A stretch of 64,000 bases of DNA. Source: Berkelbacteria bacterium GW2011_GWE1_39_12. Lineage in GTDB: Bacteria > Patescibacteriota > UBA1384 > UBA12157. A model generated the notes under the pieces. That model was not told where the DNA came from, ran no database searches, and saw nothing but the letters and a program-made list of their open reading frames with translations. How positions within the stretch are numbered: the first letter of the stretch is position 1; every line of letters starts with the position of its first letter. Of this stretch, positions 38,310-60,114 are shown piece by piece. Where the stretch lies: NCBI GenBank assembly GCA_001029735.1, contig CP011213.1, positions 332,288 through 396,287 of the forward strand, written 5' to 3'. The position numbers and the translations under genes are program-made.

Positions 38310-39497
38310 ATGAATATTTTGGTTATTCACGAGACCGAATATGTTAAAAAAGTAGTCTATGAATTTCAAATAATTCCTGAACTCCTGGCTTCAAATGGCC
38401 ATCGGGTTTTTGTAATCGATTATCCGATGGCTTGGAAAAAAAGTAATTTATTTGATTTAGGCAGCTTCAAAACAGAATATTACTTGAATGTTAAAAAAGC
38501 CAATAAGAAAAAGGGGGTAACTCTAATTCGCCCTGGCATTATTAAAATTCCGGGAATCAGCCGCTTATTTGCCTTTTTTTCTTATTTTTCGTTAATTAAA
38601 AAAACAATAAAAAAATATAAAATAAATCAAATAATTCTTTATTCTGTTCCAACCAACGGCTTACAAACACTTTATTATGCCAAAAAATATAAAATCCCAG
38701 TGCATTTTCGTATGCTCGACGTCTTGCATCAACTGGTGCCATCTAAATTACTTTCTTGGCCAACTTATTTGATGGAGAAATATATCTATAAGCGGGTAAC
38801 TGAAATTACTGCCATTACGCCTCGACTGGTAAAATATGCCATTAAGATGGGGGGCGACCCTAAAACCACCTCTTATCTACCGACTGGATCAGATGCTGAT
38901 CTTTTCTTTCCCCAGAAAAAAAATATAGATCTTATTGAGAAATTTTGGATCAAAAAACAGGATAATGTTGTCCTGTTTGCGGGTACTCTATATAATTTTT
39001 CAGGTTTAGATATCTTAATAAAATACCTTGGAGAGAATCCGAAATTGAAGCGAAACCTTAAGATGATTATTGTTGGACACGGTGAACAAGAAGGTTTGCT
39101 AAAGAAAATGATTAAAGAATATAACCTCGATAAAAATGTTTTCTTGACAGGTTTTATCGATTATTTGGAACTCAATACATATATCAACTTAGCAGATATA
39201 TGTATTAACTCATTTCAAAAAAACAACATCACCAATATTATTTTTCCTAGCAAAATTTACCAATATTTAGCCTGCGGTAAACCTGTTGTCGCCACCAAAC
39301 TAAAAGGGCTTTTAGAGCTGTTTCCTGTTGGGAACAAGAATGTTTATTATTTCAACCTTAAAAAACCTGGAGAGTTTTTCTATTTAATCCATAAAATAAA
39401 GCACCAAAAAATAAATATTAAAAATCAATCACTTCAAAAAATTATGACAGTTATTGAAGAAAAACTAGAACAAGTTAACCGGCGAGTCGGCAATTAA
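38310..39497 (+). CDS. glycosyltransferase family 4
   Basis: C-terminal ...IFPSKIYQYLACGKPVVAT... Confidence 0.7.
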   Translation: MNILVIHETEYVKKVVYEFQIIPELLASNGHRVFVIDYPMAWKKSNLFDLGSFKTEYYLNVKKANKKKGVTLIRPGIIKIPGISRLFAFFSYFSLIKKTIKKYKINQIILYSVPTNGLQTLYYAKKYKIPVHFRMLDVLHQLVPSKLLSWPTYLMEKYIYKRVTEITAITPRLVKYAIKMGGDPKTTSYLPTGSDADLFFPQKKNIDLIEKFWIKKQDNVVLFAGTLYNFSGLDILIKYLGENPKLKRNLKMIIVGHGEQEGLLKKMIKEYNLDKNVFLTGFIDYLELNTYINLADICINSFQKNNITNIIFPSKIYQYLACGKPVVATKLKGLLELFPVGNKNVYYFNLKKPGEFFYLIHKIKHQKINIKNQSLQKIMTVIEEKLEQVNRRVGN

Positions 39498-40088
39498 CAT
39501 AAAAACGTAGATCAAAATTGCCAACATCATACCATATATCAGCACTCTGAGGGACGAATATAGAAATCTCTTTCTTGGGATGTTTGAGTAACAGGTTATA
39601 TTATAGACTTCGGTAATGTAGGCATCATAAATCTGCCGTTCGTCGTCTAGCGCTTTGTGAATTTCTTTACGATACTCATCTAAATCCATTGCGTTGATAT
39701 GATGATGGTAAAATAAACTTTCCTTCTGGCCTTTTTTTGTAGTGGTGTGAGGCGGTTTTAAGGCAACAATAGCCAGAAAAAGTGAGAGGATTAATGCACT
39801 AAGCAAGACCCAAAAAACCGGATTGCCGTCGATATTATCGCGGAAATAAGTAACCAACAAAACAATCAAGGCTGAATTAAACCCGATGACAATATTCGAC
39901 CGGACATCAAGCATGTTGCGGATTTCCGTTTGTTTATCTAAAAGTGAGTCCATAAATGTGACTTTACTTAAAGTATCGATTTCGTTTTCAACCCGCTCAA
40001 CTTCACTTTCAATTTTTTTGTCGATGGCTAGATCTTTTTGATCTAATTCAATAGTATCTTCATTCATTCCACTCCTTTTATTTGTCAT
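39465..40088 (-). CDS. hypothetical membrane protein (N-terminal coiled/soluble region, 2 central TM + C-terminal TM)
   Basis: 207 aa; architecture only. Confidence 0.4.
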   Translation of the reverse strand: MTNKRSGMNEDTIELDQKDLAIDKKIESEVERVENEIDTLSKVTFMDSLLDKQTEIRNMLDVRSNIVIGFNSALIVLLVTYFRDNIDGNPVFWVLLSALILSLFLAIVALKPPHTTTKKGQKESLFYHHHINAMDLDEYRKEIHKALDDERQIYDAYITEVYNITCYSNIPRKRFLYSSLRVLIYGMMLAILIYVFMLIADSPVNLF

Positions 40089-40187: not shown

Positions 40188-40952
40188 TCAACTTTTTACT
40201 ATTCCTGCCCCCAACCAAGCGAGTTCAAAAATAGCTCGTTGCGTTTTAGCAATCGATTCCGATTCGATGATTACCGCCAAGAGTTCACCTTGTAAAGACA
40301 TGATCGCCACCTTGTTACCATAAATATCGATCTCGTTAGTAAAAGGAAATTTGTCGGCCGGAACAAGACGAGTCTTGCGTAAATGTTCTCTGTTGTGAGA
40401 AGCATATTCTCTGTTAATCGGCGCATCAGGTGCGATATTTCTAGCAGTGATTCCTTTAGCTACTCTTTTACTGAGATATTCTATTACAAATTCCGGTTCT
40501 TCGGAATACAAACCTTCAGCCGTTGCATAAGCGACGATTTCACTTCCTGATTCCTGGTTTAAAGTGTCTTCCAAAGCGAGTTTAATTCCTTCAACACCTT
40601 TGAAAAACTGAACCTTTGGACTTTGGCCGGAACTTTCTAAAGCTCGTAGCTCTGGCATAATTTCTTCAAATTCACGTAGTTTTTCTGTTTGGATTCTTTT
40701 AAATTGCTCAATTGAAACGCCGCTGTATTTTTTAACGCTAATGTCTTCTACCAATGAGAAAAACCCCATCTTCACCAAGTCCTCAACCACGTCATAAACA
40801 AAGGTTCTTTGAATCCCTGATTCTTTGGCGATCTGACCCACAGTGGCTTCGCCTAATTTTAAACAAGCCAAATAAATTACGGCTTCTTGCGGTTTCAATC
40901 CGAATTTCTCCAATTGTTTGATAAATTTTTGGTTGTTATTTAAATCATTCAT
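40188..40952 (-). CDS. TrmB-family transcriptional regulator
   Basis: N-terminal wHTH ...LKPQEAVIYLACLKLGEATVGQIAKESGIQRTFVYDVVEDL... Confidence 0.7.
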   Translation of the reverse strand: MNDLNNNQKFIKQLEKFGLKPQEAVIYLACLKLGEATVGQIAKESGIQRTFVYDVVEDLVKMGFFSLVEDISVKKYSGVSIEQFKRIQTEKLREFEEIMPELRALESSGQSPKVQFFKGVEGIKLALEDTLNQESGSEIVAYATAEGLYSEEPEFVIEYLSKRVAKGITARNIAPDAPINREYASHNREHLRKTRLVPADKFPFTNEIDIYGNKVAIMSLQGELLAVIIESESIAKTQRAIFELAWLGAGIVKS

Positions 40953-42146: not shown

Positions 42147-42668
42147 TTATTTATTCTTATTATCACTTTTATCTAAAATATCTTTTAGATACTCATCAAA
42201 ATCTTTCTCAATTTTAGCTCTATTTTTGAGTTCTTTTCGAGCCATATCATTGCCACTAACCGTCTTTTCTCTATAACCCTTTTCTTCCAAACTTTTAATC
42301 TGTTTTTGCAGCATTTTAGCTTCGCCAACTCCCATTTGTATCCCTTTTGCACACCCTTTTGGATCCCCAATCTCTCCCTTTTGGCAATACTTGAAATCCC
42401 CTATGAGTTCTTCCAGAGATCCGGCCGAAAATCCTAGGAACGATATATATTCTTTGGTCGAAGTCCTCAAATACCCTTCTTCGATATTCCTGACTACACT
42501 TCTGGCCGAACGAATCATCTGGTCTTTTAAATCGGTTAAATATTGACCGGTTTTTGGATGCTTTGACGGAAAAGATACAACGAATTTTTCAGTTAATTCA
42601 AATATATCGTTGGCTTGCTGCCAGGTTAACAAATTGCGATATCCCAAGGGGTTCGAATGGGATAACAT
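42147..42668 (-). CDS. four-helix-bundle protein ('23S rRNA intervening sequence protein' family)
   Basis: LGYRNLLTWQQANDIFELTEKF...RSARSVVRNIEEGY...GSLEELIGDFKYC matches the conserved IVS-protein pattern (L.VWQKA..L...IY...P..E...L..Q.RRAA.SI..NIAEG...EEL). Confidence 0.7.
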   Translation of the reverse strand: MLSHSNPLGYRNLLTWQQANDIFELTEKFVVSFPSKHPKTGQYLTDLKDQMIRSARSVVRNIEEGYLRTSTKEYISFLGFSAGSLEELIGDFKYCQKGEIGDPKGCAKGIQMGVGEAKMLQKQIKSLEEKGYREKTVSGNDMARKELKNRAKIEKDFDEYLKDILDKSDNKNK

Positions 42669-42770: not shown

Positions 42771-43547
42771 TTATTCCACCTTCTTAGTTCTCCCGTGTAA
42801 AACGGTATCCCATAAGATCCGCAAACCACGTGGAATAAAAAAGAAGGCATATTTAATAATCGCTAAAATCGTCCATTTATCAGACATCGCCCGGGTTTGA
42901 TGTGTTTCGATGGCTTTACGAAACTCGGCGGCTGTTTCCCCTTCAAATAAGGTATAACCCTTCCCAATTGCTTCAAGAATATGAGCGTCGGAATTACCTA
43001 ATTCCGCCTGCAAAATAGTTTCGTTAATCAAGGCGGCCCTGATATTTTCGTCGCCAAGAGTCGGAGTGGCGTTAATTACTTCAATGCCATCTAAATCTTT
43101 CCCAACCCTCATCAATGTTTTTAAACCAATGCCGTTCATCATTGGGCGGTCTCTGTTATTCCATCTGGACTGTTCGAACGGATGACAAGAAACAACCAAG
43201 CCACCTTGGGCATGCACTCTTTTAATTACCTCGGCGGCATCCAAGTTGGCCTCAATCGGCTCTTTTAAGAATAAACCCAAGAGATGGCCTTGAATCGAAG
43301 TTATTTCTTCACCTAAAACGAGATCAAAGCTGTATTTTTTCTCTTTCACCAATTTTTCAGCTTCAAAAGCCCCGGCCATGGTATCGTGATCGCAAATAGC
43401 AATAACATCAAGATTGGTCTGATTTTCAACGTAATCTAAAACTTCCGGCACTGTTGGACGACCGTCAGAATTCACGGTGTGGATGTGAACATCCGCCGTC
43501 CCCAACTGAGTAAATTTTTCAATCGCCCTAATACCTTTTTTATTCAC
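42771..43547 (-). CDS. PHP-domain metal-dependent phosphoesterase
   Basis: ADVHIHTVNSDG...AICDHD... PHP motifs. Confidence 0.7.
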   Translation of the reverse strand: MNKKGIRAIEKFTQLGTADVHIHTVNSDGRPTVPEVLDYVENQTNLDVIAICDHDTMAGAFEAEKLVKEKKYSFDLVLGEEITSIQGHLLGLFLKEPIEANLDAAEVIKRVHAQGGLVVSCHPFEQSRWNNRDRPMMNGIGLKTLMRVGKDLDGIEVINATPTLGDENIRAALINETILQAELGNSDAHILEAIGKGYTLFEGETAAEFRKAIETHQTRAMSDKWTILAIIKYAFFFIPRGLRILWDTVLHGRTKKVE

Positions 43548-43581
43548 AATTAAATTATAGCAAATAATTACTGCTAAGAGA

Positions 43582-43610
43582 TTGACATTACCTCAATTTT
43601 CTGGTATTAT
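43582..43610 (+). promoter_or_regulatory. sigma70-like promoter TTGACA-17-TATTAT
   Basis: consensus -35/-10 upstream of 43668. Confidence 0.5.
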
Positions 43611-43667
43611 TTCTCTCGTCCGCTATAAGTGAATTTATTTACTTTTGTGGGACGAAATCAGTGAAAG

Positions 43668-44441
43668 ATGAGGGACCAGAAATTGGCTAAGTCAGAAATT
43701 GAAGGAATGGGACAACCGGAAAACAAAGACAGAACAGAAAACCAGGTAGCAGAAGAAGATACACCGGTAGTGGTCACGGTAGAGACTCGTGCAGACGATC
43801 AACAGGGCGCGGCTGAAACAGAGGCAGTTACTGAACCGGAAGCTGTTGAACCAGAAACAGCACCTCATGTTCCACCATCGACACCGGCACATGAGACCCT
43901 AGCCAGGGCGATTGAAGATGTGAAAACAGCTTCGTGCCCTAGGGACGCAGACGAGGCATTGACGGCGCTCGCTTTGCAGTGCGGAGCGCGTAAAGACGAC
44001 TTCTTCCCGGACGACGTCCGCGGCAAGCTAGCCGCAGAAGCCCTATTTGTGGGGATCATGAACAACAAGCATGGAATCGTCTACGACCCGATCACGGAGT
44101 TTGCCGTGAACCAGATCGGGCTCGAAGAGACAAAGAAGTTCGCCGATAAAATGGGTATGGCTTTTGTCGATTGCTTCCCCGGGTGCCCTACCTGTAAAGG
44201 GCACATTGCGACCAAAGAACTGGCGGATCAAATACGGACATCAATTGAATCATCGAACATCCGTATTCCCGAAGAACTGGCCGCAATGTTTGGACCAGAG
44301 CTTACAGCACAGATCGAAGATCTGATAAGGCAAACGCCAGCTACCAGCGGCACTATCGAGATCTTCAGCGTCGAAGATCTCGACCGCATTCCTGGAAGAA
44401 CTTCCTTCGAACGGATATTCGGTCGTCGACGGCGCTTCTAG
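43668..44441 (+). CDS. acidic hypothetical protein with Cys cluster (CFPGCPTCKGH)
   Basis: 257 aa, high-GC codon usage, strong terminator at 44471-44508. Confidence 0.5.
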   Translation: MRDQKLAKSEIEGMGQPENKDRTENQVAEEDTPVVVTVETRADDQQGAAETEAVTEPEAVEPETAPHVPPSTPAHETLARAIEDVKTASCPRDADEALTALALQCGARKDDFFPDDVRGKLAAEALFVGIMNNKHGIVYDPITEFAVNQIGLEETKKFADKMGMAFVDCFPGCPTCKGHIATKELADQIRTSIESSNIRIPEELAAMFGPELTAQIEDLIRQTPATSGTIEIFSVEDLDRIPGRTSFERIFGRRRRF

Positions 44442-44579
44442 TAGATCCATTATCGAACTAACATACAAGAAACAGCCTTGGGTTTTCACCCAAGGCTGTT
44501 TTTCTTTTTGGGTAGACAAAAAACAACTCATGAGCTAGTCTAAGATGGAAGAACGTACATCACAATTGAAGGAGGTCAT

Positions 44580-44957
44580 ATGGCTGCCACTGCTACTATG
44601 ATACCAACTAATCTTCGTCGACGACGAGCTGCAAAACAAGTAAGAAAGTTGAATGCTAAAGATGATGCCGTATCTAAACATGTCGGCAAAACCATAACTG
44701 ACCTCTACGAACTGAGTCAATCCGGCACTGTTCCGGTAAACATAACCTTCGCCTTAAGATTAAAGCCAGACACCAGAAGTCCAGAAGAGATTAAAGAGAG
44801 CTTTGAAACCTTTACCCAGGCCATCCTGAAACTCTTACAAGATCTCTTTTGCACTTGTGGCGGAACATGCACAGTTGATTCATACGTCGTTAATCTAGCG
44901 GATCACATTGAATCTTGCGTTTTTCGCTATGATCCCACTTTACCTAGCCCGAATTAA
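44580..44957 (+). CDS. hypothetical protein
   Basis: SD GAAGGAGG 7 nt before ATG; terminator hairpin gcccgaa..ttcgggc at 44948-44975. Confidence 0.5.
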   Translation: MAATATMIPTNLRRRRAAKQVRKLNAKDDAVSKHVGKTITDLYELSQSGTVPVNITFALRLKPDTRSPEEIKESFETFTQAILKLLQDLFCTCGGTCTVDSYVVNLADHIESCVFRYDPTLPSPN

Positions 44958-45120
44958 ACTTTCGGGCTTTTTAACTAGTTATATTTAGAGGACGGGATCC
45001 CCGCGGAGTAGTTTATCCACATTTTGTAATTTTATAATCTTTGTTTTACTATTAAGTAGATCTAAGTTGTTTTTACCGCGAAGTCCCCTTGCCCAGAAGG
45101 AGGCGCGGCTACTCGAATCC

Positions 45121-45267
45121 CCATTCTCACAAAATGGTTATTATTTCAAAACAATTTGAGGAAGGATTGTTTTGATTAAAACTATTTGAGAATTGTCGTG
45201 TTTATGGCAATTCTGCATGTGGAAGGATAGTTTTAAAGAATTGTACTGTGAGAGATGGTCGTTTTTT
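45121..45267 (+). ncRNA. candidate structured RNA, copy 1 (unknown family)
   Basis: closing helix ccattctcaca/tgtgagagatgg, hairpin caaaacaat-ttgaggaagg-attgttttg, hairpin gagaattgtcg/tggcaattct, terminal T-run. Confidence 0.45.
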
Positions 45268-45381
45268 AGTATTTTTTATTTTTTAAGGTAAAAATAGACG
45301 ATCTTTCGATTATTGTTTATTGTTTTTTAATTTTGTTACAATATAAATGTTCTAGCGAAATAGAAACAAACACTCGTATTT

Positions 45382-45528
45382 CCATTCTCACAAATGGTTG
45401 TTAGTTCAAAACAATTTGAGGAAGGATTGTTTTGAAAAAGACTATTCGAGAATTGCCTTGTTTAAGGTAATTCTGCAAGGGAAAGGATAGTTTTAGAGAG
45501 AATTAATGTGAGAAGTGGAGGGTTTTTT
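45382..45528 (+). ncRNA. candidate structured RNA, copy 2 (diverged paralog of copy 1)
   Basis: same architecture; helix 2 arms changed to gaattgcc/ggtaattc, keeping pairing via a different wobble. Confidence 0.45.
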
Positions 45529-45735
45529 ATTTTTAAATATATGATAATTTGCAGTAAATTTAGAGTGTTTTATAATTAAATGGTTCTATCTAATATATAA
45601 GCTCAATAATTCGTGGACTGGTGGCGCCTTCAGAGCTTAGTCAAATACTCTCGGTTTCAACGCTCAAATACCTTGGCTGTTGTATTGTTGAGGTAAAAGG
45701 AGGGGTGTCGAATACGATTTTTTAGTACTCTTATC

Positions 45736-45764
45736 TTGACAAAATACTATTTATGAGATACAAT
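45736..45764 (+). promoter_or_regulatory. sigma70-like promoter TTGACA-17-TACAAT
   Basis: perfect consensus upstream of 45806. Confidence 0.55.
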
Positions 45765-45805
45765 GCTCGATGTACCTTAACATGGGTGAGCAGGAGGAGA
45801 AAACC

Positions 45806-46606
45806 ATGGCGAATTTGGAACGAGTTTTTTATGTATTGGATGGTGTCAGGAAAACACTTTTTCAGGTTCCTGACGATAGATTGGCAATGTGGCAGGGTTT
45901 CAACGACCCGGACAACTTTGACGACATGGGGTATCCGGGCGATATTATTGCTAAAATACTCAGCCGTGATCCGGAAGTTATCAGAAAAATCATGGCAGAA
46001 AACCCGCCGACGACACTCGAGATGCTTCAATATAAGCTCTCGGTGTTAAACAAAGCAACTGATTGGTCAAAGGTGGACATCTGTGCCGATATCATTACCG
46101 GCTGGATGTTCAAAAAAATCACAATCAAGGACTACGTTCAGGCTTTGAAAAGCCTGGGTATTACAATACAGTCTAGCTTACTACTCGTTGCGTTTGAAAG
46201 TAATGAGTCGGGCCCAACCTTCTTTACGGCCCAAAAGGTTCAGGAAGACCTTGCCATGACGTTTGGCATGAATTCAAGAAAACAACAGTCCTTCCTGATG
46301 AAAGAAGAAGCGAGAATGGGCTCGCTGGAGGATTTCTTAAACTACACACTTGAATTAGTGTGTATAGCGATCCTTAAAAATCATGATGTTTGGGGAGTCC
46401 TCTCGAACGCATTTCAGTCGAATACCACCGTGAAGCTTTCGAATTGCATCTATAAAAGCGAAGAACAAGCGGAGCTTAGCGGAAGACGGCTGCTTCTCGA
46501 GATTGATCCCGCGGCGTTCTATGACCGAACCAAGCCGCTTATCATCTTGAAATCCGTGCCTGAACCAAAATGGCATGGAAGCATTTTCACAGTAAGAAGC
46601 ATTTAG
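45806..46606 (+). CDS. hypothetical protein
   Basis: ATG at 45806 with AGGAGG SD; terminator 46605-46630. Confidence 0.55.
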   Translation: MANLERVFYVLDGVRKTLFQVPDDRLAMWQGFNDPDNFDDMGYPGDIIAKILSRDPEVIRKIMAENPPTTLEMLQYKLSVLNKATDWSKVDICADIITGWMFKKITIKDYVQALKSLGITIQSSLLLVAFESNESGPTFFTAQKVQEDLAMTFGMNSRKQQSFLMKEEARMGSLEDFLNYTLELVCIAILKNHDVWGVLSNAFQSNTTVKLSNCIYKSEEQAELSGRRLLLEIDPAAFYDRTKPLIILKSVPEPKWHGSIFTVRSI

Positions 46607-46641
46607 CCCTTCGTAAGAGGGGCTTTTTTAATCCCTTACTC

Positions 46642-46670
46642 TTGACAACAGCTCAACTATATGCTATAGT
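46642..46670 (+). promoter_or_regulatory. sigma70-like promoter TTGACA-17-TATAGT
   Basis: consensus hexamers upstream of 46782. Confidence 0.5.
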
Positions 46671-46781
46671 GGCAAGTTGTGTTCTTTTACAACTAGTCTT
46701 AAATCCAAGCAATCACCCGGTTTCCGGGTTTTATATAGTCACTGCAATTTCTCTAAAAAATCAACTATGGAGGCAGTTCTT

Positions 46782-47807
46782 ATGAAGCGAAATACAATAG
46801 CAGTACTTGGAATGGCACTTCTTCTGGCGTTTTGTACCGTACCAGCACAGGCAGGCGGACCTGGCGACAGCGGCACCTATGTGACCGCTGACGTCTTCAA
46901 CCCCTCGAGTATGAACTTGGACGGCGTAGATAACACATCGACTTTCTTCCCAACCGACATCCTCGGCAACGAGAATTTCAGAGAGAAGACATGTGCCGTC
47001 ATCGGCGTGAATCACGCCAACATCGGTGATGCTGAGTTCGACGGCAACAAAGAAATCGTCGTTTATCAGCCAAATCGCAAGTTTGCCGTTGGCATAGCCC
47101 GTTCATCTGTCGACTCAAGTCGCTGGTCAGTTAACCCTGACAGCACTGGTACGATGGAAACATCGGGCCATTGGATGACTTTTACTAGCGCATATCAAGC
47201 CAGTAAGAAAGTGGCAATCGGTCTGAGCATAACCAGCGGCAAGGCTTATACAGCCACCACTTGGCCAGGCTTTAGCTACATAGATAACGAAACAGATAAC
47301 GTGCATAGTTTCCCTGGCGGAACAGACCGAATGACCATCAAAGATGGCACGAACTTCGTCCTTGGTGCTGACCTAGCCGTCAACTCTGAATTCAACGTCT
47401 TAGCCGCGTGGAACAGCCGTTCCGGCGAACTAAGCATGTCAACCGTCATGGACGACGGTAGTGATCCGGGTTATCCAGGAATGGGCCCGCTATCCTTTAG
47501 CAAAGATTCTATGACGATTGCTGGCAGATACCATAAGGGTAAACTGCAAGCGACCGTCGGTTTCCAAGGGATTCAGAATGACGGGGCCTACATGGAAACC
47601 GACAAGACGATGCGCAGCTTCGCAGGAGTGCATTACCAGTTCAGCAAGAACCTTTCGGTTCGAGCTGGAAGCTGCTCTGGAAGCCGCGACATTGGTGCCC
47701 TCTACAGCGACAATTGCTGGGTCGTCAATGCTGGGTACCTCAATAAGGGCCTCAATACGAGTAACAACAACTCGATGTGGCTCCTGAGCGGAGGTAAGCT
47801 GTTCTAG
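46782..47807 (+). CDS. putative outer-membrane beta-barrel protein (signal peptide, C-terminal Phe)
   Basis: MKRNTIAVLGMALLLAFCTVPAQA signal peptide; alternating amphipathic strands; ends ...LLSGGKLF; terminator 47834-47867. Confidence 0.5.
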   Translation: MKRNTIAVLGMALLLAFCTVPAQAGGPGDSGTYVTADVFNPSSMNLDGVDNTSTFFPTDILGNENFREKTCAVIGVNHANIGDAEFDGNKEIVVYQPNRKFAVGIARSSVDSSRWSVNPDSTGTMETSGHWMTFTSAYQASKKVAIGLSITSGKAYTATTWPGFSYIDNETDNVHSFPGGTDRMTIKDGTNFVLGADLAVNSEFNVLAAWNSRSGELSMSTVMDDGSDPGYPGMGPLSFSKDSMTIAGRYHKGKLQATVGFQGIQNDGAYMETDKTMRSFAGVHYQFSKNLSVRAGSCSGSRDIGALYSDNCWVVNAGYLNKGLNTSNNNSMWLLSGGKLF

Positions 47808-47870
47808 GAACAGCAAACTAACGAACTTATCGAAAAGGCGGTGGAGATTTCTCCCCCGCCTTTTTTAATA

Positions 47871-47900
47871 CTAAATTTATTTGACTTGTCCAAAAAACCA
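47871..47900 (+). promoter_or_regulatory. sigma70-like promoter TTGACT-18-TATACT
   Basis: upstream of 47937. Confidence 0.45.
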
Positions 47901-47936
47901 GTTCTATACTTTATCTAAGAGCAGACGGAGGTGAAT

Positions 47937-48317
47937 ATGGAAGCTGTCATAGTTCTAACCCCTCTTTCTTTCGATCAGAGATATGGCATTTTCTACTATA
48001 AGGACAATAATTCCCTGACAATTGTCTTCTCTGGCGATGTAGTACTGAATAGACTCTTTACTCTAGAGCTAAGACCAACAACTATCTTCGTGGACATGCT
48101 TGGAATTAATTTGAGCGATCTAAGAAGAATTACTATTAACACCCAAGCTCTTCCGACGCAAGGCTATGACAAGGTTCTGCCTTTCCTTGGCCTTTTTGCA
48201 GCCTATACCAACAACGCCCTTAACATCGATCTCTTGATCTTGGCTCAGAAATCCCTTTACAATACCGACCGGGGTTTCTCCAAGTTCGATCTTCAGGTTT
48301 TTCCTGAAGGCAGCTAG
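47937..48317 (+). CDS. hypothetical protein
   Basis: GGAGG SD 7 nt before ATG 47937; terminator cccgcc..ggcggg at 48320-48342. Confidence 0.5.
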   Translation: MEAVIVLTPLSFDQRYGIFYYKDNNSLTIVFSGDVVLNRLFTLELRPTTIFVDMLGINLSDLRRITINTQALPTQGYDKVLPFLGLFAAYTNNALNIDLLILAQKSLYNTDRGFSKFDLQVFPEGS

Positions 48318-48352
48318 CTACCCGCCCCCTGGCGGGTTTTATAAATTTAGTA

Positions 48353-48381
48353 TTGACCATTCGGTTATTTTCTGATATAGT
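48353..48381 (+). promoter_or_regulatory. sigma70-like promoter TTGACC-17-TATAGT
   Basis: upstream of 48414. Confidence 0.45.
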
Positions 48382-48413
48382 TTCGATGCATCAAAAGCAT
48401 AAGGAGGATCAAT

Positions 48414-48743
48414 ATGTATGTGCCCGCAGATGTTATTGGAGTAAGAAGAGAAACCGAAAATGCTCTGAGTAGAGCAAACATTAACCATAAAATCACGATC
48501 GCAAGAAGAGTAACCGTGTATTTTAAGGGCAGCGGCTCAGGATATCTATATGCAAAAAGTGGTTTGGTTGAAAATGTAATGACAGTTGTTCCCAAGCCAG
48601 GATTTGGGGCAGCCTATGTCGTCATCGGCTTTAAGGTAGACGACAAGAAGGCCGAGATGGTTGCCTACTCAACAGGCGAGACCAAATGGTCCTATGCAGA
48701 CAAATCCCTAACCCCCTTCTGGGCCGAACCTGAGAATGAATAA
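48414..48743 (+). CDS. hypothetical protein
   Basis: AAGGAGG SD; terminator 48758-48782. Confidence 0.5.
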   Translation: MYVPADVIGVRRETENALSRANINHKITIARRVTVYFKGSGSGYLYAKSGLVENVMTVVPKPGFGAAYVVIGFKVDDKKAEMVAYSTGETKWSYADKSLTPFWAEPENE

Positions 48744-48819
48744 CGATCGATCTCACAACCCACTGATTTTGGTGGGTTTTTTAGTACTAAAAAACCCAGG
48801 ATTTCTCCTGGGTTAACTG

Positions 48820-49446
48820 TTACTTGATAGAATATCCAATCCCGAAACCGACAAAGCCGTTATCACCGAACTTTGTACGAAGTTCCGGAGTAAAGTCCCT
48901 GTAGGACTTAGATGCTCTCAGGTAGGCAGCTTTGTTGTTCGCTGCCAGATCGATGTTTGTGCCCTTCTTGGTTTTGAAACCAATACCTACAAAAGGTTTT
49001 GACCTCTCTTCAAGAGTTAGGAACAAATTGACCTTTCCTTTATACCTGAATCCGAATTGGATTGGTTCTCCTTCAAGAGACGCGATCATACCAATCCCGA
49101 AGTGATTAGCTTCGTAATCGAACATCAAGCTTTCGCCCAATGTCGTATCTGAGCATTCTCGCTTGTAGTTGGCGATGTAACCAGTTTGGAACCGAGAACC
49201 AATTCTTTGAGCAATCGAGAGCTCGTTGGTCACACTCGCCTCATCATCGCAGCCATACCATCCAATAGATGTATTTTTAGCGACTTGCCGGGAAGCGTAA
49301 AACCAAGGATCATTTTCAACTGCCACCTTCAGAAATGTTCCTGAACCAAAAAGGTAGCATGCCGTCAGATCCGCCGGGTTAGCAGCTTGAACTGGAACTG
49401 AGTAAAGCAGCACGATTGCTGCCAAGATCGCAATTATATACCTCAT
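48820..49446 (-). CDS. putative small outer-membrane beta-barrel/porin-family protein with signal peptide
   Basis: MRYIIAILAAIVLLYSVPVQA signal peptide; beta-rich; own terminator at 48789-48814 (minus). Confidence 0.45.
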   Translation of the reverse strand: MRYIIAILAAIVLLYSVPVQAANPADLTACYLFGSGTFLKVAVENDPWFYASRQVAKNTSIGWYGCDDEASVTNELSIAQRIGSRFQTGYIANYKRECSDTTLGESLMFDYEANHFGIGMIASLEGEPIQFGFRYKGKVNLFLTLEERSKPFVGIGFKTKKGTNIDLAANNKAAYLRASKSYRDFTPELRTKFGDNGFVGFGIGYSIK

Positions 49447-49500
49447 TTAGTTTCCTCCTTTTGAATGTGTCGGAGGAAATTCCCCCGACTACCTAAATTG

Positions 49501-50721
49501 CTATGCAACCAAGTAATCGGGAAGAGGCACATGAGCGATCTTATTCACTATATCTGGCAGTAAAGCCGACTGATCAGCGTTCGCAAGCCTTCCAACAAGA
49601 GAACAAGATTCAAGTTTAAGCGGTGGGGTTATCCAACCGTGTTGGCTTGTTTCAAATTGCTTTTGCTGACCGCTGCTTAACCAGATCGCTTCTATTGGAC
49701 CCGCCCGACTGGAAATCAAGACTTTCGTCTTTTCCTTCTCTGTCGATGCCTGCGCAGATGAACTAAACCAAGGCAGAATAAACAAACACAGAATTGTCGC
49801 GGCCAAGGCCAAGGCAAAACTATGTTTGAAATTCCCTGTATTTTGGTGACAATACTCTTTGCGCCAAACTTTGTAACCTGTAGAGCCAGCGATCTCATCG
49901 ATCACTTTTTTCTCATGTCTTGAAAGCGGCGCTAGAAGTTTATCTTTTATCCGTCGCAGCTCTGTCTGAACTACTATTTCTCGGATGATATTTCCCGGAT
50001 AGCAGAACAAGCCATAAGGCCAGAAAAGTATCGAGAAAACAAATTTCTTCTTGTCAGCCAGAACTGTCGCCAGAAGTCGTTTCTTCCGTTTCCAGATTCG
50101 AAGCGCATACATCAGCAAACAAACAGGCCAAGTCCGCAAGAAAAGGAACCAGGACCATGTCCACCAGTTGACGCTTTTAAGATGTGCGCCGAGTGTTTCT
50201 GCCCCGGTTTTTGGACCAATGTTGTATTTACTTTTCCATGAGTTGTAGCTCATTTCCTCGGGCCATCGTTGCATTTCCATTTCACGATTGTCTTGGGTGT
50301 TACGAAAACATTGTTCCATCAACGCACCTCTGGTACTAGATGAAACAATGCCACCACCATTCGGACAAATCGGAGTTGGAAACCCTAGTTTCTGATCCAG
50401 ACGGTCAATCTCGCGCAGATCGCTATAAAGCGTTTTGGGCGTGTAATTTCTGCCCAACTTATGCGCTCTTCCTCCGATCTTACTACAGAGCGCGGCCACC
50501 CGGATTCCGGCTTTCTTCTGATACTCATAGTCTTGGCTAGCCTGAGAAAATGTTTTAGGATGCTGCTGCATCTGACAAAACGCCCAAAGCAGCCAAACGA
50601 CAAAGAGCACAAAGCCGATACAATCAAAAACTGTAATGCGGTCGTCCTGTCCGTCATTGTAATAACGCTGATTCGGACGATTTCTCATTCTGCTTAGCGC
50701 CGTGTAATACTCGTGATCCAT
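49501..50721 (-). CDS. hypothetical polytopic membrane protein
   Basis: 406 aa, several TM, Trp-rich; no family recognised. Confidence 0.45.
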   Translation of the reverse strand: MDHEYYTALSRMRNRPNQRYYNDGQDDRITVFDCIGFVLFVVWLLWAFCQMQQHPKTFSQASQDYEYQKKAGIRVAALCSKIGGRAHKLGRNYTPKTLYSDLREIDRLDQKLGFPTPICPNGGGIVSSSTRGALMEQCFRNTQDNREMEMQRWPEEMSYNSWKSKYNIGPKTGAETLGAHLKSVNWWTWSWFLFLRTWPVCLLMYALRIWKRKKRLLATVLADKKKFVFSILFWPYGLFCYPGNIIREIVVQTELRRIKDKLLAPLSRHEKKVIDEIAGSTGYKVWRKEYCHQNTGNFKHSFALALAATILCLFILPWFSSSAQASTEKEKTKVLISSRAGPIEAIWLSSGQQKQFETSQHGWITPPLKLESCSLVGRLANADQSALLPDIVNKIAHVPLPDYLVA

Positions 50722-50861
50722 TCATTTCACCCCCTCTTTTGGCTAGTTGCCAGATTCAATTGTTAAATTTCATCGCATAGTACGAACAGGTGAGAATACT
50801 ACCAATAAAGCAAAAAGTCAAGATACTAAAAACCCCGAGATTTCTCTCGGGGCAAATAGAT

Positions 50862-51047
50862 CTACCAGTTGGCCCTCTCATCCCAGAACCCAACGTGTTT
50901 CGGCCATCGGTACGGATCACGAGGATCATCTTCCCAATTCGCCTCAGTAGCCCAATGCCCACGATGAGGTTGATGACCATCGGGGTAATCCTGTTCTTTA
51001 TACTCTATATAATCATCTTCTTTAATTACATCCTCGTTCTCAGCCAT
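50862..51047 (-). CDS. small acidic Trp-rich hypothetical protein
   Basis: ATG at 51045-51047 preceded by AGGAGG; the longer track ORF begins further upstream. Confidence 0.4.
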   Translation of the reverse strand: MAENEDVIKEDDYIEYKEQDYPDGHQPHRGHWATEANWEDDPRDPYRWPKHVGFWDERANW

Positions 51048-51066
51048 ATCAACTACCTTTTCCTCC

Positions 51067-51507
51067 TTATTTTTTTGAAACCTTAAACTTTTCTGTTTCC
51101 CAGTCTTTGAGAATTCCAGCATGCTCTATTCGCTTATAGGCAGGTCTAAACTTTATATTGTCCCCCTTGTCGATGACTTTGAAATATGCGGTACACTTTA
51201 AAACGCATTTTTCCTCTTCAGTGAAACCAGGAACAAGAATATCCCAGTGATATTCAGCGGCGGTTGGAATGCTTTCTTTTTCATTTTCAACACAATACAC
51301 CCGGACGGATTGTTTTGAACTAACTCCACAAACCGCTTGGTGATCGGGATCATAGTCTGCAACCACAAGGCAATACTGGTCCGCAGAATAACCAAACCGA
51401 GTCCCAATAAAACCGATTTCCATTTCTTGGCCCATGATTGCAAACAATTCAATTACCACCTTCAAAGCGAGTCTCTCGTTTTTATTGAAATAATGGTTGT
51501 CAAACAT
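51067..51507 (-). CDS. hypothetical protein
   Basis: ATG 51505-51507 with AGGAGGG SD. Confidence 0.5.
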   Translation of the reverse strand: MFDNHYFNKNERLALKVVIELFAIMGQEMEIGFIGTRFGYSADQYCLVVADYDPDHQAVCGVSSKQSVRVYCVENEKESIPTAAEYHWDILVPGFTEEEKCVLKCTAYFKVIDKGDNIKFRPAYKRIEHAGILKDWETEKFKVSKK

Positions 51508-51667
51508 AATCCCTCCTTTTGATTGTTAATATCCGCCCTCTCGCGAACAGATGATGGTATCATAAGACTGTTATTTAGTCCTATTTTTTGACATATTGAT
51601 ATATACAATAGAGTTTGTTATCTTATATTTAAATAATGTTGTCCATTTTTTGGACAAAAGGAGTTAG

Positions 51668-52369
51668 ATGGATATTAAAATCGAGGGTTTAGACGAAGAG
51701 GAATTCCATGTCTATAAAGCCTTACTTTCCCTAAAAAGAGGGACTGTTTTGCAATTAGCAGCCATTTCCGGCGAAAAGCGAAGCAATCTTTACCGAATCT
51801 TGGACAATTTGATGGCCAAACGTCTGGTCAGCGAAATTTATGAGGGCAAAAAACACTTTTATATCGCCGAATCGCCAAAAGTTTTGATGGATTTTATTAA
51901 TCAGCAAAAAGAGCGAATATCAGAGATAATTCCCGAGCTTGAGACAATCGAAAAAGAAGCGCTCGAGCGGCCAAAAATTAAGTTTTATGAGGGAAAAAAC
52001 GGCATCAAAAATCTTTATGACGAACTAATTATGCCAAACCAGGAAATTCTCGCCTTTGCCTGGCCGGATAAACTACTGGATAAGATTGATTTTCACAATG
52101 AATTTGTCAAAACCCGCTTAAAACATAATATGCCAGTCAGAGCAATTTACCCTGACAACAGGGCGGCCCGCTTAAGAAATACGGGCTTAAAAGAATCCAA
52201 ATATTCTAAAAAATTGCCAGCTTTTGACGCCACCATGCTAATTTCAGGCAATAAAGTAGTTTTATTTTCCATGAAAAACTGGATTACAGGAGTACTGATC
52301 GACAACAAAGAAATCGCCGACTGCCTAAAAGCTTTGTTTGACGGATATTGGGGCGAATTAAAAAAATAA
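51668..52369 (+). CDS. TrmB-family transcriptional regulator (second copy)
   Basis: wHTH ...FHVYKALLSLKRGTVLQLAAISGEKRSNLYRILDNLMAKRLV... Confidence 0.65.
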   Translation: MDIKIEGLDEEEFHVYKALLSLKRGTVLQLAAISGEKRSNLYRILDNLMAKRLVSEIYEGKKHFYIAESPKVLMDFINQQKERISEIIPELETIEKEALERPKIKFYEGKNGIKNLYDELIMPNQEILAFAWPDKLLDKIDFHNEFVKTRLKHNMPVRAIYPDNRAARLRNTGLKESKYSKKLPAFDATMLISGNKVVLFSMKNWITGVLIDNKEIADCLKALFDGYWGELKK

Positions 52370-52435
52370 CAATAATTCACAACTTGCCATTATTTTTCTA
52401 TCTACAAGGCTCTATGATCCACTAGAAAGCGCTTT

Positions 52436-53128
52436 CTAGCCTCTTGCCACAACCAGTCCCCAAACTTCTTTTACACCCGCATTTTTGAGCACTTTGGCGC
52501 ACTCGTTTAACGTCGCGCCAGTGGTTGTGACATCGTCAACTATTAAGATCCTTTTGCCTTTCAGACTTTCGGCTTTATGGACTTTAAAGACTCCCTCCAG
52601 ATTAGTCCTTCTCTTTTTGCCGGATAATCCGACCTGTCTTTTGGTATATCTAGTTTTTACCAGTAATTCCTCGGAGGGTATCTTAATATTCTTTGATACC
52701 TCTTGGGCTAGTATTTCTGCTTGATTGAATCCCCTTTCTGCCAGTCGTTGATGATGTAAGGGGGCAAAAGTTATGACGTCGATTTTCAGATCAGCAGGCA
52801 AAGCATTCACCATAATTTTAGCCAGGTTTTTCTTTAGTTCCAATGCATGATTATATTTGAAATTATGAATCATTTCCTTGATTGGCCCTTCTTCAAAATA
52901 GGCGCCAACCAAAACGCCATTTATTTCGAAATTTTTCGCACATTTTTGACAAATTTTTCCATTTTTATTTAATCTTAAACAACTGGGGCAAACTTGCTCA
53001 CCAATTTTTATAATATTTTTTTCGCATTTTTTACATAATAAAAAACCCTCAGTATTACAGCCAACACAAAACTGAGGGAAAAATAGATCTAAAAACAATT
53101 TTTTTATTTTAGCAAGCGACTTTTTCAT
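52436..53128 (-). CDS. comFC: ComF-family protein (double zinc ribbon + phosphoribosyltransferase domain)
   Basis: CxxC...CxxC pairs; RILIVDDVTTTGATL PRTase motif; start either ATG 53128 or TTG 53173. Confidence 0.7.
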   Translation of the reverse strand: MKKSLAKIKKLFLDLFFPQFCVGCNTEGFLLCKKCEKNIIKIGEQVCPSCLRLNKNGKICQKCAKNFEINGVLVGAYFEEGPIKEMIHNFKYNHALELKKNLAKIMVNALPADLKIDVITFAPLHHQRLAERGFNQAEILAQEVSKNIKIPSEELLVKTRYTKRQVGLSGKKRRTNLEGVFKVHKAESLKGKRILIVDDVTTTGATLNECAKVLKNAGVKEVWGLVVARG

Positions 53129-53138
53129 CGAATCTTTT

Positions 53139-54800
53139 TCAGCGAATCTTGTGAATCGACGCACTATCCTCAAAAGTTTTAACGTTTTGACTTTCTTCCT
53201 CTAAACTTTCAATCACTTTTTTATAGTTTAGATAGTTAGCGTAAGCCGGATATGCCGATGGATCAGTATTACCAGGCGGATTAACGTCATCTAGAACATA
53301 AGAAATATTTTTATATTTTAGCTGAACATCTTTAATTAAATTTTGATAATTCTTTTGTATTTTCTTATCATCTTGATGCTTTCGATAGTTCTCAACCACT
53401 AAAATCTGCTCTTCTGTCAATTTCAGAGGTGTCATCCTTATATTGGTAGTTTTAACAGGTAAAAACAAGTTTGCGGCCGGATTATAAAGAATTGGAGCAT
53501 CTTTGGCGATATTTGAATCTATATAATCAACCTTAGCTTGATCTACCGGCCAGAACCAAATATGGTTGGTAAAAGTATTAGGAATTTCATTAAAACCATT
53601 GAAAATGACCGAGTTAATGATAACCAAATAACCAATCAAGCCAAAAACGAATATTTGTCCAAGGCGAATTCTATTAAGGTTTAATTCGAAGACATAGCGC
53701 CAAAGAAATGCAAGGGAAACAGTCAGCGGTAAGGCTAACTCTCTGGCAAATCGTCCAGGTACACTTGATTCGTTCAGCCTAGACATGACATAAAAAAATA
53801 TCAGCCAAATAATTACCAATTGTTTGGCTTTTTTATCTGTTTTTGTCGAAAAATTCGTCATTAAAAGATATATAAATCCAGCCAAACCAAAACACCAAAC
53901 CAAATTTCCTGCAAACGACGGATAATCATTATAGTCCGGAAGAATATTTAAGTAGTTATTCTTTAGAAACGGCGCATTTGTGAAAAACCCAATAATAAAA
54001 TTGGAAACCATGCCGCCGTATAGCAACTCAGACAAAAAGTATCCGGCGATTAAGAGAACCAAAAATATTCCGGTGCTCAAAACGACTTTGAGCGAAAGCT
54101 TTATTTTGCATGTAAAAATCTTTTGATAGAGCTGTATCAAGCCAAACACAAGTAAAATACTTAGAACATTAAAAAAAGTGAAATGGTGAGTCAAGGCAAT
54201 AAGCAATAGAAATAATCCCGACCAGACAAGGTTCAATTTTTTATTGGTTTTAAAATAACGGATTAAGAAGGCGAAAAGCATGACGGCAAAAAAACCGTAA
54301 GCCAGCATATCCGGGTAATTGCCGTCGATAAAACCATACAGGGGATATCCTGAGCTTAGGAGTAAAACAAAAGAGGTTAAAACGGAAACTTTCAAACTGA
54401 AAATTTGGCGCAACAAGAAAAACATGGCAAGCGTCGGTAGAATAATTAAGATTGGAGTTAAATTGGTTAAAACCCACCATATATCTCGATGAAAAAGCTT
54501 GCTAATGCCTATTACAATCAAATGAAAACCGGCAGGATAGGCGGAAAGATTAACTTTTCCGGCCACCATAACTGTTTTAATTAAATTATAATGACCGACA
54601 ACATCGTTTCCCGGAGGTACCAAAAAATGACGATGCCAATAAACATAGTAAATAATAAATATTTGAAGACTTAAGGCTAATAGCCCAATCCCAATCCAAA
54701 AATAGCGATAGAGTTTTGATCCTTGCATTAATAACCCCTTAGATAACAAATTTCCCAATAACTTAGAGGACCGTAATATCCCAATAAATTCCAATGTCAT
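53139..54800 (-). CDS. large polytopic membrane protein (putative GT-C/ArnT-like glycosyltransferase)
   Basis: 553 aa, ~12 TM. Confidence 0.35.
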   Translation of the reverse strand: MTLEFIGILRSSKLLGNLLSKGLLMQGSKLYRYFWIGIGLLALSLQIFIIYYVYWHRHFLVPPGNDVVGHYNLIKTVMVAGKVNLSAYPAGFHLIVIGISKLFHRDIWWVLTNLTPILIILPTLAMFFLLRQIFSLKVSVLTSFVLLLSSGYPLYGFIDGNYPDMLAYGFFAVMLFAFLIRYFKTNKKLNLVWSGLFLLLIALTHHFTFFNVLSILLVFGLIQLYQKIFTCKIKLSLKVVLSTGIFLVLLIAGYFLSELLYGGMVSNFIIGFFTNAPFLKNNYLNILPDYNDYPSFAGNLVWCFGLAGFIYLLMTNFSTKTDKKAKQLVIIWLIFFYVMSRLNESSVPGRFARELALPLTVSLAFLWRYVFELNLNRIRLGQIFVFGLIGYLVIINSVIFNGFNEIPNTFTNHIWFWPVDQAKVDYIDSNIAKDAPILYNPAANLFLPVKTTNIRMTPLKLTEEQILVVENYRKHQDDKKIQKNYQNLIKDVQLKYKNISYVLDDVNPPGNTDPSAYPAYANYLNYKKVIESLEEESQNVKTFEDSASIHKIR

Positions 54801-59096: not shown

Positions 59097-59399
59097 ATGA
59101 TTAATTTATTAAAAGATTTACCAATAATTTCCAGAGCATATGCTCAACCCACGGCCGTTGTTACAGATATTGGACACGCAGTTAATTTTGGTGATTATAT
59201 TAATAACGTCATAAATGTGATTACTCCAATATTAGGCAGTATTGCTTTGTTGGTTTTCATTATTGCCGGCTATCTCTATATCACCAGTCAGGGAGATCAG
59301 AGTAAAATTGGGCTTGCCAAAGAGTTGATTATTGGAGTAATCACTGGTATTTTACTTTTATTTCTAATTAATGTTCTTAAAACTCAAATAGGATTTTAA
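59097..59399 (+). CDS. TrbC/VirB2-like pilin-family small membrane protein (paralog 1)
   Basis: leader ...AYAQP, TM, conserved GDQSK...LIIGVITGILL second TM. Confidence 0.55.
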   Translation: MINLLKDLPIISRAYAQPTAVVTDIGHAVNFGDYINNVINVITPILGSIALLVFIIAGYLYITSQGDQSKIGLAKELIIGVITGILLLFLINVLKTQIGF

Positions 59400-59729
59400 A
59401 TGCAAGATTTGTTCATTTTTCTTAACCAAGCTAAGGCACAAAGCGATACATTAGTTGGTGTCACAGAGGTAAGATCGTCGGCATCAAACTTTTCTAACGT
59501 TCATGAGGTTGTAGCAGGTGCTATTACCTGGATAACCGTCATTGCATCGGCGCTTTTACTTATTGCAATTATTTATTCAGGTATAATGTATATAACAAGC
59601 GGCGGTGATCAGACAAAGGCAGAAAACGCCAAAAAGAATTTACTCTGGGCAATTATCGGTATGTTCGTGATTTTGTTTTCGTACACTGTCATTGAATATC
59701 TACCTAATTTTATAGAAAGTGCACCATGA
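59400..59729 (+). CDS. TrbC/VirB2-like pilin-family protein (paralog 2)
   Basis: ...AKAQS leader; YITSGGDQTKAENAKKNLLWAIIGMFVIL. Confidence 0.55.
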   Translation: MQDLFIFLNQAKAQSDTLVGVTEVRSSASNFSNVHEVVAGAITWITVIASALLLIAIIYSGIMYITSGGDQTKAENAKKNLLWAIIGMFVILFSYTVIEYLPNFIESAP

Positions 59730-60055
59730 AGATAATTGCGTTAAAAGAAATCGCGCAAGCGACTCAAGTTATTCCCAGCGTACCCGGTGGATCAGAAAAC
59801 TTTGACTGGGGTAATTCGGTGAGCCCGCTTATTCAGAATATTACAACTATTGCCTTGGATATCGTCGGCGGGATAGCAATGCTATATATGATAATTGGTG
59901 CTATTCAATATTTCACTGCCTATGGTGACGAATCAAAGGCCACTGCAGGCAAAACCACCTTACTTTGGGCAATCGTTGGTTTAGTTGTTATAGTTGTTTC
60001 CAGAATAATCATCGGGTGGGTTTTCAGCTTTGTTACAACAACCTCAGCCTTCTAA
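59726..60055 (+). CDS. TrbC/VirB2-like pilin-family protein (paralog 3)
   Basis: YFTAYGDESKATAGKTTLLWAIVGLVVIVV. Confidence 0.55.
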   Translation: MKIIALKEIAQATQVIPSVPGGSENFDWGNSVSPLIQNITTIALDIVGGIAMLYMIIGAIQYFTAYGDESKATAGKTTLLWAIVGLVVIVVSRIIIGWVFSFVTTTSAF

Positions 60056-60114
60056 TTTGACAAAATAGTCAGCGCAATTTAAGATGTAGTTAAAGTATAT
60101 AACAAGGAGGTCGA

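Follow-up and report, generated by a model that had tools for sequence, protein, structure and literature searches.

The window analysed here is a 64,000-nucleotide (nt) stretch of contig CP011213.1 (positions 332,288 to 396,287, forward strand) from Candidatus Berkelbacteria GW2011_GWE1_39_12, a groundwater bacterium of the candidate phyla radiation (CPR) with a ~0.9-Mb genome. It contains a gene-free gap of 812 nt, conspicuous within such a genome, which runs from the stop of a gene for a 125-amino-acid (aa) protein (44957) to the called start of the gene downstream (45770). What occupies this gap? An earlier note on this DNA described two diverged copies of a structured RNA-like element there and proposed a pair of paralogous small RNA (sRNA) genes. 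We found two tandem, well-folding RNA-like paralogues, hereafter units 1 and 2, which are apparently under selection and appear to belong to no described RNA family. We place the probability that they represent a structured RNA element on the plus strand, selected for some function, at roughly 0.65. The more specific reading that they are a pair of independent sRNA genes acting in trans stands slightly short of even odds.

Two structured units on the plus strand

The presence of two tandem diverged copies in the non-coding gap was borne out: they are 81-83% identical and lie in direct orientation on the plus strand. A repeat search aligned 45132-45274 with 45392-45534 at 81% identity without gaps and 45111-45133 with 45372-45394 at 87%, and blastn between the copies gave 82.7% identity over 168 nt (E = 1e-36). 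The spacing of the copies is 260-261 nt, and an AT-rich stretch of ~100 nt lies between them. Unit 1 spans a conserved 5′ flank (ACTCGAAT), the closing helix P1 and the sequence up to the first T6 run, with further T-runs to ~45285. A consensus of both units comprises four helices (P1, P2, P3 and P3a), those of unit 2 lying 260-261 nt downstream of their counterparts. The features of the two units are as follows.

45111-45267, plus strand: unit 1, candidate sRNA 1 (covariance model R1, 169.8 bits)
45372-45528, plus strand: unit 2, candidate sRNA 2, with the architecture of unit 1 (R1, 165.9 bits)
45121-45130 with 45248-45258, and in unit 2 45382-45391 with 45508-45518, plus strand: closing helix P1 (consensus structure)
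45146-45157 with 45164-45175, and in unit 2 45406-45435, plus strand: P2 hairpin (repeat search and consensus structure)
45178-45187 with 45225-45234, plus strand: helix P3 (inverted-repeat search); the whole P3 arm of unit 2 occupies 45438-45494
45188-45199 with 45204-45216, plus strand: P3a, the second hairpin, GAGAATTG... (consensus structure)
45160-45167, 45221-45228, 45420-45427 and 45481-45488, plus strand: GGAAGGAT motif, the last copy reading GAAAGGAT

The closing helix, the TTGAGGAAGG hairpin, the second hairpin, the direct repeat and the T-runs of the earlier description were all present where it had placed them. P1 reads CCATTCTCAC(A)/(T)GTGAGA(G/A)(A/G)TGG in both copies; two of its 10 pairs vary as a U-A/U-G swap and none is broken. 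P2 is a perfect hairpin of 10-11 bp formed by TCAAAACAAT and ATTGTTTTGA around TTGAGGAAGG; its loop, UUGAGGAAGG, becomes a GAGGAA hexaloop if two U.G pairs form. A 31-nt stretch over P2 is identical between the copies despite an overall divergence of 19%. P3 (TTAAAACTAT/ATAGTTTTAA), an extra helix around the second hairpin, goes beyond the earlier list, and the internal loop on its 3′ side bears a second GGAAGG. A short helix, P1b, can form in both copies (AUGGUU/AAUUGU or UGGUU/AAUUA), with a register slip of 2 nt.

On the plus strand, the units fold with energies of -43.5 and -46.8 kcal/mol (z = -5.2 and -5.5), and none of 200 shuffles folds as well. Three flanking non-coding controls (44975-45118, 45267-45379 and 45583-45728) gave ordinary z values of -0.15, -0.38 and -0.84, the last stretch being the one at -0.15, indicating that the folding signal belongs to the units and not to the AT-rich gap as a whole. 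Searching the window with model R1 retrieved only the two units, the next best match being their own reverse strand at 19.6 bits, and no third copy was found with this model in either the window or the adjoining 20 kb.

The differences between the copies avoid the helices. Over 144 aligned columns, 8 differences fell in the 88 paired columns and 19 in the 56 unpaired ones (Fisher p = 3.4e-4), corresponding to a ~3.7-fold higher rate in unpaired columns. None of the eight differences in paired columns disrupts standard pairing: six are single transitions by way of G.U (UA/UG, UG/UA, AU/GU, UG/CG twice and GC/GU), and one pair is changed on both sides, from GU to UA. Three of the changed pairs lie in P3a (GC>GU, UG>CG and GU>UA) and two in P3 (AU>GU and UG>CG). 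When eight random substitutions were simulated in the paired columns of copy 1, the probability of zero breakage was 1e-5 with uniform substitutions, 8e-5 when transitions had their observed share and 0.019 when all changes were transitions. Conversely, on the minus strand the identical differences break 7/8 and 6/7 of the changed pairs, and the minus-strand folds are weaker by 12-15 kcal/mol. The pair-keeping changes together with this strand asymmetry argue for selection on a plus-strand RNA fold (a single-stranded DNA fold being less likely) over a double-stranded DNA palindrome. The compensatory variation that had been claimed is thus partly upheld: there is one true double change, and the remainder are the six wobble-mediated single changes.

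Similarity between the copies continues beyond the inverted repeat, with ACTCG(A/T)AT upstream and T-runs downstream, which argues for a segmental duplication rather than two insertions. Read from the sequence, a comparable duplication may lie within each unit. The P2 module consists of UCAAAACAAU, UUGAG joined directly to GAAGG, and AUUGUUUUGA, and the P3 module of UUAAAACUAU, UUGAG and GAAGG separated by 31 nt, and AUAGUUUUAA. Since the P3 arm thus resembles a P2-like hairpin with a 31-nt insert in its loop, a single hairpin module seems to have been duplicated within each unit, and the resulting pair of arms to have been duplicated again to give the locus.

We next consider the ends of the units. 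The following features bear on transcription, the last two belonging to the flanking genes.

45262-45267, plus strand: T6 run, putative transcript end of unit 1, 3 nt past P1 (sequence)
45523-45528, plus strand: T6 run, putative transcript end of unit 2, 4 nt past P1 (sequence)
45313-45342, plus strand: TTGTTT-18-TGtTACAAT with an extended -10, upstream of unit 2, weak evidence (dedicated scan)
44946-44968, plus strand: intrinsic-terminator-like hairpin and T-run ending the upstream 125-aa gene (terminator scan)
45736-45764, plus strand: TTGACA-17-TACAAT promoter-like site of the downstream gene, 11/12 matches (promoter scan)

A T6 run is kept after P1 in both copies although the adjoining sequence differs, against a T6 background of ~2 per kb. 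The terminator-like ends proposed earlier stood in this respect, whereas the terminator scan called none at 45240-45290 or 45500-45545. The spacer between the copies is only weakly promoter-like: the site at 45313-45342 is weak and falls below the threshold of the standard scan, and AT-rich DNA yields many such matches. Upstream of unit 1, the only promoter-like sites have 8/12 matches. We infer transcription of the units and their transcript ends from sequence. As the earlier note had stated, the flanking genes are self-contained, with the upstream gene ending in its own terminator and the downstream gene having its own promoter-like site, ~200 nt past unit 2 and ahead of its start at 45770 or 45806. 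The units are thereby isolated on both sides, which favours separate sRNA genes over cis-regulatory leaders.

Two further promoter-like stretches bracket the RNA pair. One, at 45024-45064, reads TTGTAA-17-TACTAT followed by TGTTTTACTATTAAGTAGATCTA; the other, at 45548-45588, has TTTGCA-17-TATAAT within TGTTTTATAATTAAATGGTTCTA and is 78% identical to the first. The latter could drive a transcript across 45583-45728, a segment that ends in UCGAAUACGAUUUUUU and is not unusually structured (z = -0.15).

What the units may be and how they may act

No family could be named for the units, in agreement with the earlier note. Rfam 15 gave only three tRNAs above gathering thresholds in the window, and at E <= 10 a search of 44900-45800 returned five chance-level matches (best E = 2.8). 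Afu_182 alone touched a unit, on the minus strand at 45347-45467 across unit 2, with 13.7 bits against a gathering threshold of 65 (E = 8.4). Pattern scans covered viral contigs (three scans), metagenome contigs and species-representative genomes; they yielded 98 loci in all, every one a chance match by nhmmer or model R1. The two-loop DNA patterns accounted for 78 loci in the viral, metagenome and genome collections, all chance by both nhmmer and R1, and the viral scans for the P2 hairpin and for the junction motif likewise gave chance matches only. The metagenome and genome scans did not return the source organism either; these collections appear not to contain it, so that absence there is weak evidence. 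Distant-mode blastn against phages and plasmids gave no match. The RNA-pair locus itself is 100% identical across five groundwater assemblies, all of which run straight through it.

Several known classes were considered and rejected. Antitoxin RNAs of type III (ToxI-like) consist of head-to-tail repeats of ~36-50 nt that immediately precede a ToxN/AbiQ-type toxin gene and share its transcript. The units are ~150 nt long with starts 260 nt apart and a ~100-nt AT-rich spacer, a promoter-like site lies between them and the next gene, and the neighbouring proteins have no PADLOC or Pfam match. A retron msr-msd RNA was set aside since the neighbours have no reverse transcriptase domain and the downstream protein no YxDD motif. 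Repeats of a diversity-generating retroelement would have mismatches only at adenines of one copy and a variable repeat within a gene; here the substitutions involve all four bases, both copies are non-coding and there is no reverse transcriptase nearby. Self-cleaving ribozymes and phage packaging RNA found no Rfam match, and an integron attC site would require an R′/R′′ core, which the units do not have.

Two (G)GGAAGGAU elements are present in each unit: the first is centred in the GAGGAA hexaloop of P2, and the second lies in the internal loop of P3. The direct repeat GGAAGGATNGTTTT(A/G) occurs four times, in the units only, against a chance expectation of 0.2. GGA is found 4-5 times per unit (1.7 expected), giving 8-9 triplets for the pair. 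The GGAAGGAU motifs resemble a ribosome-binding site (RBS) or a site bound by CsrA. In the window, AAGGA, AGGAG and GGAGG are the most frequent 5-mers within the 22 nt ahead of start codons. High-affinity CsrA/Rsm sites have GGA at positions 3-5 of a hexaloop and a selected consensus of RUACARGGAUGU, and AAGGAU(U/A)GU of the units resembles its ARGGAUGU part. Since the exposed element consists largely of purines and corresponds to the AAGGA core of RBSs, it cannot pair with RBSs in the manner of typical repressor sRNAs. No loop-complementary or pyrimidine-rich target stands out within the window, and translation-start regions showed no unusual pairing with the units (best |z| 3.3 for 62 genes and 8 segments).

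These features can be assembled into a working model. Paralogous plus-strand sRNA genes of ~150-190 nt each, acting in trans, would have arisen when a segment comprising the closing helix and some flanking sequence outside it was duplicated in tandem. In each RNA, P1, together with the short register-shifting P1b, would hold two arms, P2 and P3/P3a, and the U-run directly after P1 would mark the transcript end. The displayed (G)GGAAGGAU elements would mimic the AAGGAGG-type RBSs of the genome and resemble CsrA/Rsm sites, and the RNAs may serve as decoys that titrate a binder of RBS-like sequences; this could be a translational repressor of the CsrA type or some other RNA-binding protein. Sponge RNAs are known to be built by hierarchical duplication of one hairpin module. 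We rank the decoy as the most likely mechanism because of the RBS-like purine element, the likeness to CsrA/Rsm sites and the sponge-like hierarchical duplication; it can be offered as a doubtful proposal at best. csrA is reported to be among the highly expressed genes of groundwater ultra-small prokaryotes (PMC9938205).

A number of observations weigh against the reading as trans-acting sRNA genes and decoys. The test for a canonical intrinsic terminator failed: the U-run follows the long-range helix P1 with no local GC-rich hairpin ahead of it, and the terminator scan leaves it uncalled. Promoter evidence is poor for unit 1 and modest for unit 2, and no homologue outside the single population was found in any collection searched; a functional RNA of so narrow a distribution is possible, though other organisms lend it no support. 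The substitution test is partly circular in that the consensus structure was derived from the same two sequences, and covariation is read from two paralogues only. With two rows the shuffle control is powerless (244/500); the slid-partner control, the only informative one, left 37-50% of cells paired, compared with 100% in the structure itself. With regard to the binder, tblastn with E. coli and B. subtilis CsrA did not find this protein in ~84 kb of the 915-kb genome, the Rfam Csr/Rsm models gave no match in 44900-45800 even at E <= 10, and a Csr-type sponge would be expected to have more than the 2-4 GGA sites present in each RNA. The proposal of paralogous sRNA genes is accordingly retained in part: tandem, structured, non-coding, RNA-like units on the plus strand with selection-like divergence are present, whereas promoters of their own and their transcription are putative.

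Alternatively, the units could be tandem cis-regulatory riboswitches or attenuators, in which P1 and the U-run would terminate transcription and read-through would control the downstream 266/278-aa gene. Tandem complete riboswitches are a known arrangement; moreover, the multi-helix junction with its conserved unpaired bases is followed immediately by the U-run, all parts lie on the strand of the downstream gene, and, as read from the sequence, a ribosome or factor on the AUG at 45134 or 45394 would cover the 5′ strand of P1. Against it stands the near-consensus promoter-like site (TTGACA-17-TACAAT, 11/12) between unit 2 and the gene, owing to which the units are probably not leaders of that gene; the end of unit 2 is also 278 nt away from the start codon. 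In addition, no riboswitch family matched, no homologues from other taxa turned up in the collections searched, a weak relative of the downstream gene (P0123) has no such RNA upstream, and an aptamer restricted to one population would be unusual. We consider this explanation quite unlikely. A somewhat better chance, yet still a small one, is given to a non-functional relic, that is, a palindrome-rich segment or decayed element resembling a miniature inverted-repeat transposable element (MITE) with 11-bp terminal inverted repeats, tandemly duplicated and now drifting. P1 (10-11 bp) does qualify as a terminal inverted repeat, the element was found in one population only, within a horizontally acquired island of family-less proteins, and neither homologues nor transcripts are known. 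However, similarity past the inverted repeats points to segmental duplication, neither unit has a target-site duplication, no dispersed copy exists in ~84 kb (the 64-kb window and 20 kb beyond), and the five assemblies are continuous through the locus. Neutral drift at 19% divergence should also have broken several pairs, whereas none is broken and the G.U changes are strand-specific.

Action at the DNA level was weighed as well. The four GGAAGGATWGTTTTR repeats and the palindrome AAACAAT-N10-ATTGTTT could be operators or iterons that bind, for example, a nearby TrmB-family regulator, and the direct repeats, the perfect 10-bp inverted repeats and the proximity of TrmB-family genes would fit such sites. 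Yet the window has no other instance of the palindrome, at promoters or elsewhere, the 61-nt repeat spacing is a non-integer number of helical turns, and P1, P3, P3a and the one-strand G.U-neutral substitutions would be left unexplained, making operators very improbable. Lastly, the units could encode small proteins or be type I toxin-like mRNAs. The reported absence of open reading frames (ORFs) was confirmed, with none of more than 32 aa in the units and none common in position and frame. A 13-codon ATG...TGA frame, MV(I/V)(I/S)SKQFEEGLF*, is kept in both copies (45134-45175 and 45394-45435), and type I toxin mRNAs typically show long-range 5′-3′ pairing and are often tandem. Against its translation, this frame has no Shine-Dalgarno sequence though the genome uses AAGGAGG-type sites, both of its two differences change the amino acid and neither is silent, and the peptide, short and charged, does not resemble a membrane peptide; the remaining micro-ORFs change frame and length from one copy to the other. 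The frame overlaps the P2 hairpin, and we treat it as a by-product of the conservation of P2, regarding a coding function as scarcely credible. Among these explanations, a selected plus-strand structured RNA, possibly a pair of sRNA genes, remains the one that we prefer.

The surrounding island and other features of the window

The RNA pair lies in the following segment.

43548-52435: island, 8.9-kb insertion, holding family-less proteins, the RNA pair and a TrmB-family regulator

The island is bordered by genes for a PHP protein (42771-43547, minus strand) and ComFC (52436-53173, minus strand). In a relative (locus L085), whose PHP and ComFC proteins are 69% and 54% identical, the two genes are 324 nt apart compared with 8.9 kb here, identifying 43548-52435 as an insertion. 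The island has a GC content of 41-47%, against 32-37% over the 10 kb upstream. Neither att-like direct or inverted repeats at its ends nor an integrase within it was found. Apart from the TrmB-family regulator, its ten protein genes returned nothing from Pfam, PADLOC and PHROG and nothing above the cut-offs of NCBIfam. TrmB-family genes are located at 40188-40952 and, inside the island, at 51668-52369. Two island proteins (46677-47807 and 48820-49446) have signal-peptide-like starts.

The proteins next to the units likewise have no close relatives. Sequence searches against Pfam, PADLOC, NCBIfam, PHROGs and the PDB were all empty, the AlphaFold models were poor (mean confidence score pLDDT 57 and 35), and among 5.8e9 proteins both flanking proteins (125 aa and 266/278 aa) match only themselves. 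An exhaustive HMMER search of 1.84e9 representatives gave two weak matches to the 266-aa downstream protein, and model R1 detected no such RNA at the locus of the better match (P0123, E = 3e-5). The relatives reached via the conserved PHP protein have neither the island nor, when R1 was applied to their syntenic loci, the RNA. Four independent assemblies (L001-L004) break off at 46258-46385, within the 278-aa gene, and two begin at 44264-44269, which suggests strain heterogeneity flanking a common 2-kb segment with the RNA pair.

Several other features of the window were recorded. A 23S rRNA intervening-sequence protein (PF05635, Avd family) is encoded beside PHP at 42147-42668 on the minus strand, a pairing kept in L085; this is the family of the accessory protein Avd of diversity-generating retroelements, yet no reverse transcriptase is close by. 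A PycTM-like two-transmembrane effector lies at 39465-40088 on the minus strand (PADLOC E = 2.8e-15), and such a gene is near PHP and TrmB also in Berkelbacteria relatives (L084 10858-11451, L085 7155-7721 and L086 11315-11794). Pfam recognised no cyclase beside it, which suggests an orphan effector or a housekeeping paralogue. Four tandem small genes (100-109 aa) at 59097-60435 stand beside a T2SSE/VirB11-like ATPase (61484-63070); Pfam matches on L110 12636-13974 assign them to a TrbC-type pilin of type IV secretion systems, directly confirmed for 59097-59399 only. A 490-aa ORF at 5511-6983 on the minus strand is split into genes of 231 and 250 aa in GCA_003509005.1 (L109 4153-5614), through a frameshift or a difference between strains. 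Beyond the right end of the window, at a distance of about 2.5-10 kb (L110 1-7636), are dnaA, rpmH, rnpA, yidD, yidC and a KhpB/Jag-like gene, indicating that the window adjoins the replication-origin region. The same segment holds two further TrmB-family genes, so that the genome has at least four TrmB paralogues.

Comparison with known RNA systems

Regulatory RNAs of CPR/Patescibacteria are essentially uncharted, and our search of the literature on small or structured RNAs of this group found nothing relevant. Transcription of the units, if it occurs, would make them a new sRNA family and would indicate that the acquired, strain-specific islands of reduced genomes bring their own RNA regulators. 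That they are the first lineage-specific regulatory RNAs described in CPR/Patescibacteria, either as decoys titrating a CsrA-like regulator or the 30S subunit or as the RNA part of an uncharacterised system with the relative-less neighbour proteins, is a long shot. The practical value is limited, since the element is known from one uncultivated population and the comparative evidence consists of two paralogues.

MITE-like repeats such as Correia, RUP and BOX share with the units a length of ~150 nt, terminal inverted repeats, a strong fold and an intergenic position, whereas the units are two adjacent copies only, have no target-site duplication and are not dispersed in ~84 kb. Tandem riboswitches and attenuators are likewise similar in having a junction followed by a U-run, two full units in series and the orientation of the downstream gene, and differ in that here a promoter-like site intervenes, the start codon is 278 nt off, the element is not conserved across taxa and no known aptamer matches.

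The CsrB/RsmX/Y/Z RNAs resemble the units in their repeated GGA in hairpin and internal loops and in modules that apparently arose by internal duplication. In contrast to their short hairpins, each unit has two motif sites (4-5 GGA) on stems of 10-12 bp; its GGA count is far below that of CsrB and comparable to that of the smallest Rsm RNAs.

Tandem paralogous sRNA genes are known from PrrF1/PrrF2 of Pseudomonas, OmrA/OmrB of E. coli, AbcR1/2 and LhrC1-4 of Listeria. The units share with them the arrangement as adjacent same-strand paralogues of ~100-200 nt in one intergenic region, the T-run ends, a conserved core that diverges less and a location between unrelated genes. Conversely, they have no sequence or model match to PrrF, OmrA/B, AbcR or LhrC, they expose a purine-rich RBS-like motif where those RNAs use a pyrimidine- or C-rich seed complementary to the RBS, they end in a long-range helix and U-run instead of a local terminator hairpin, and their host is a CPR bacterium. 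The kind of element, bacterial small RNA genes, would thus be already known and the family itself new.

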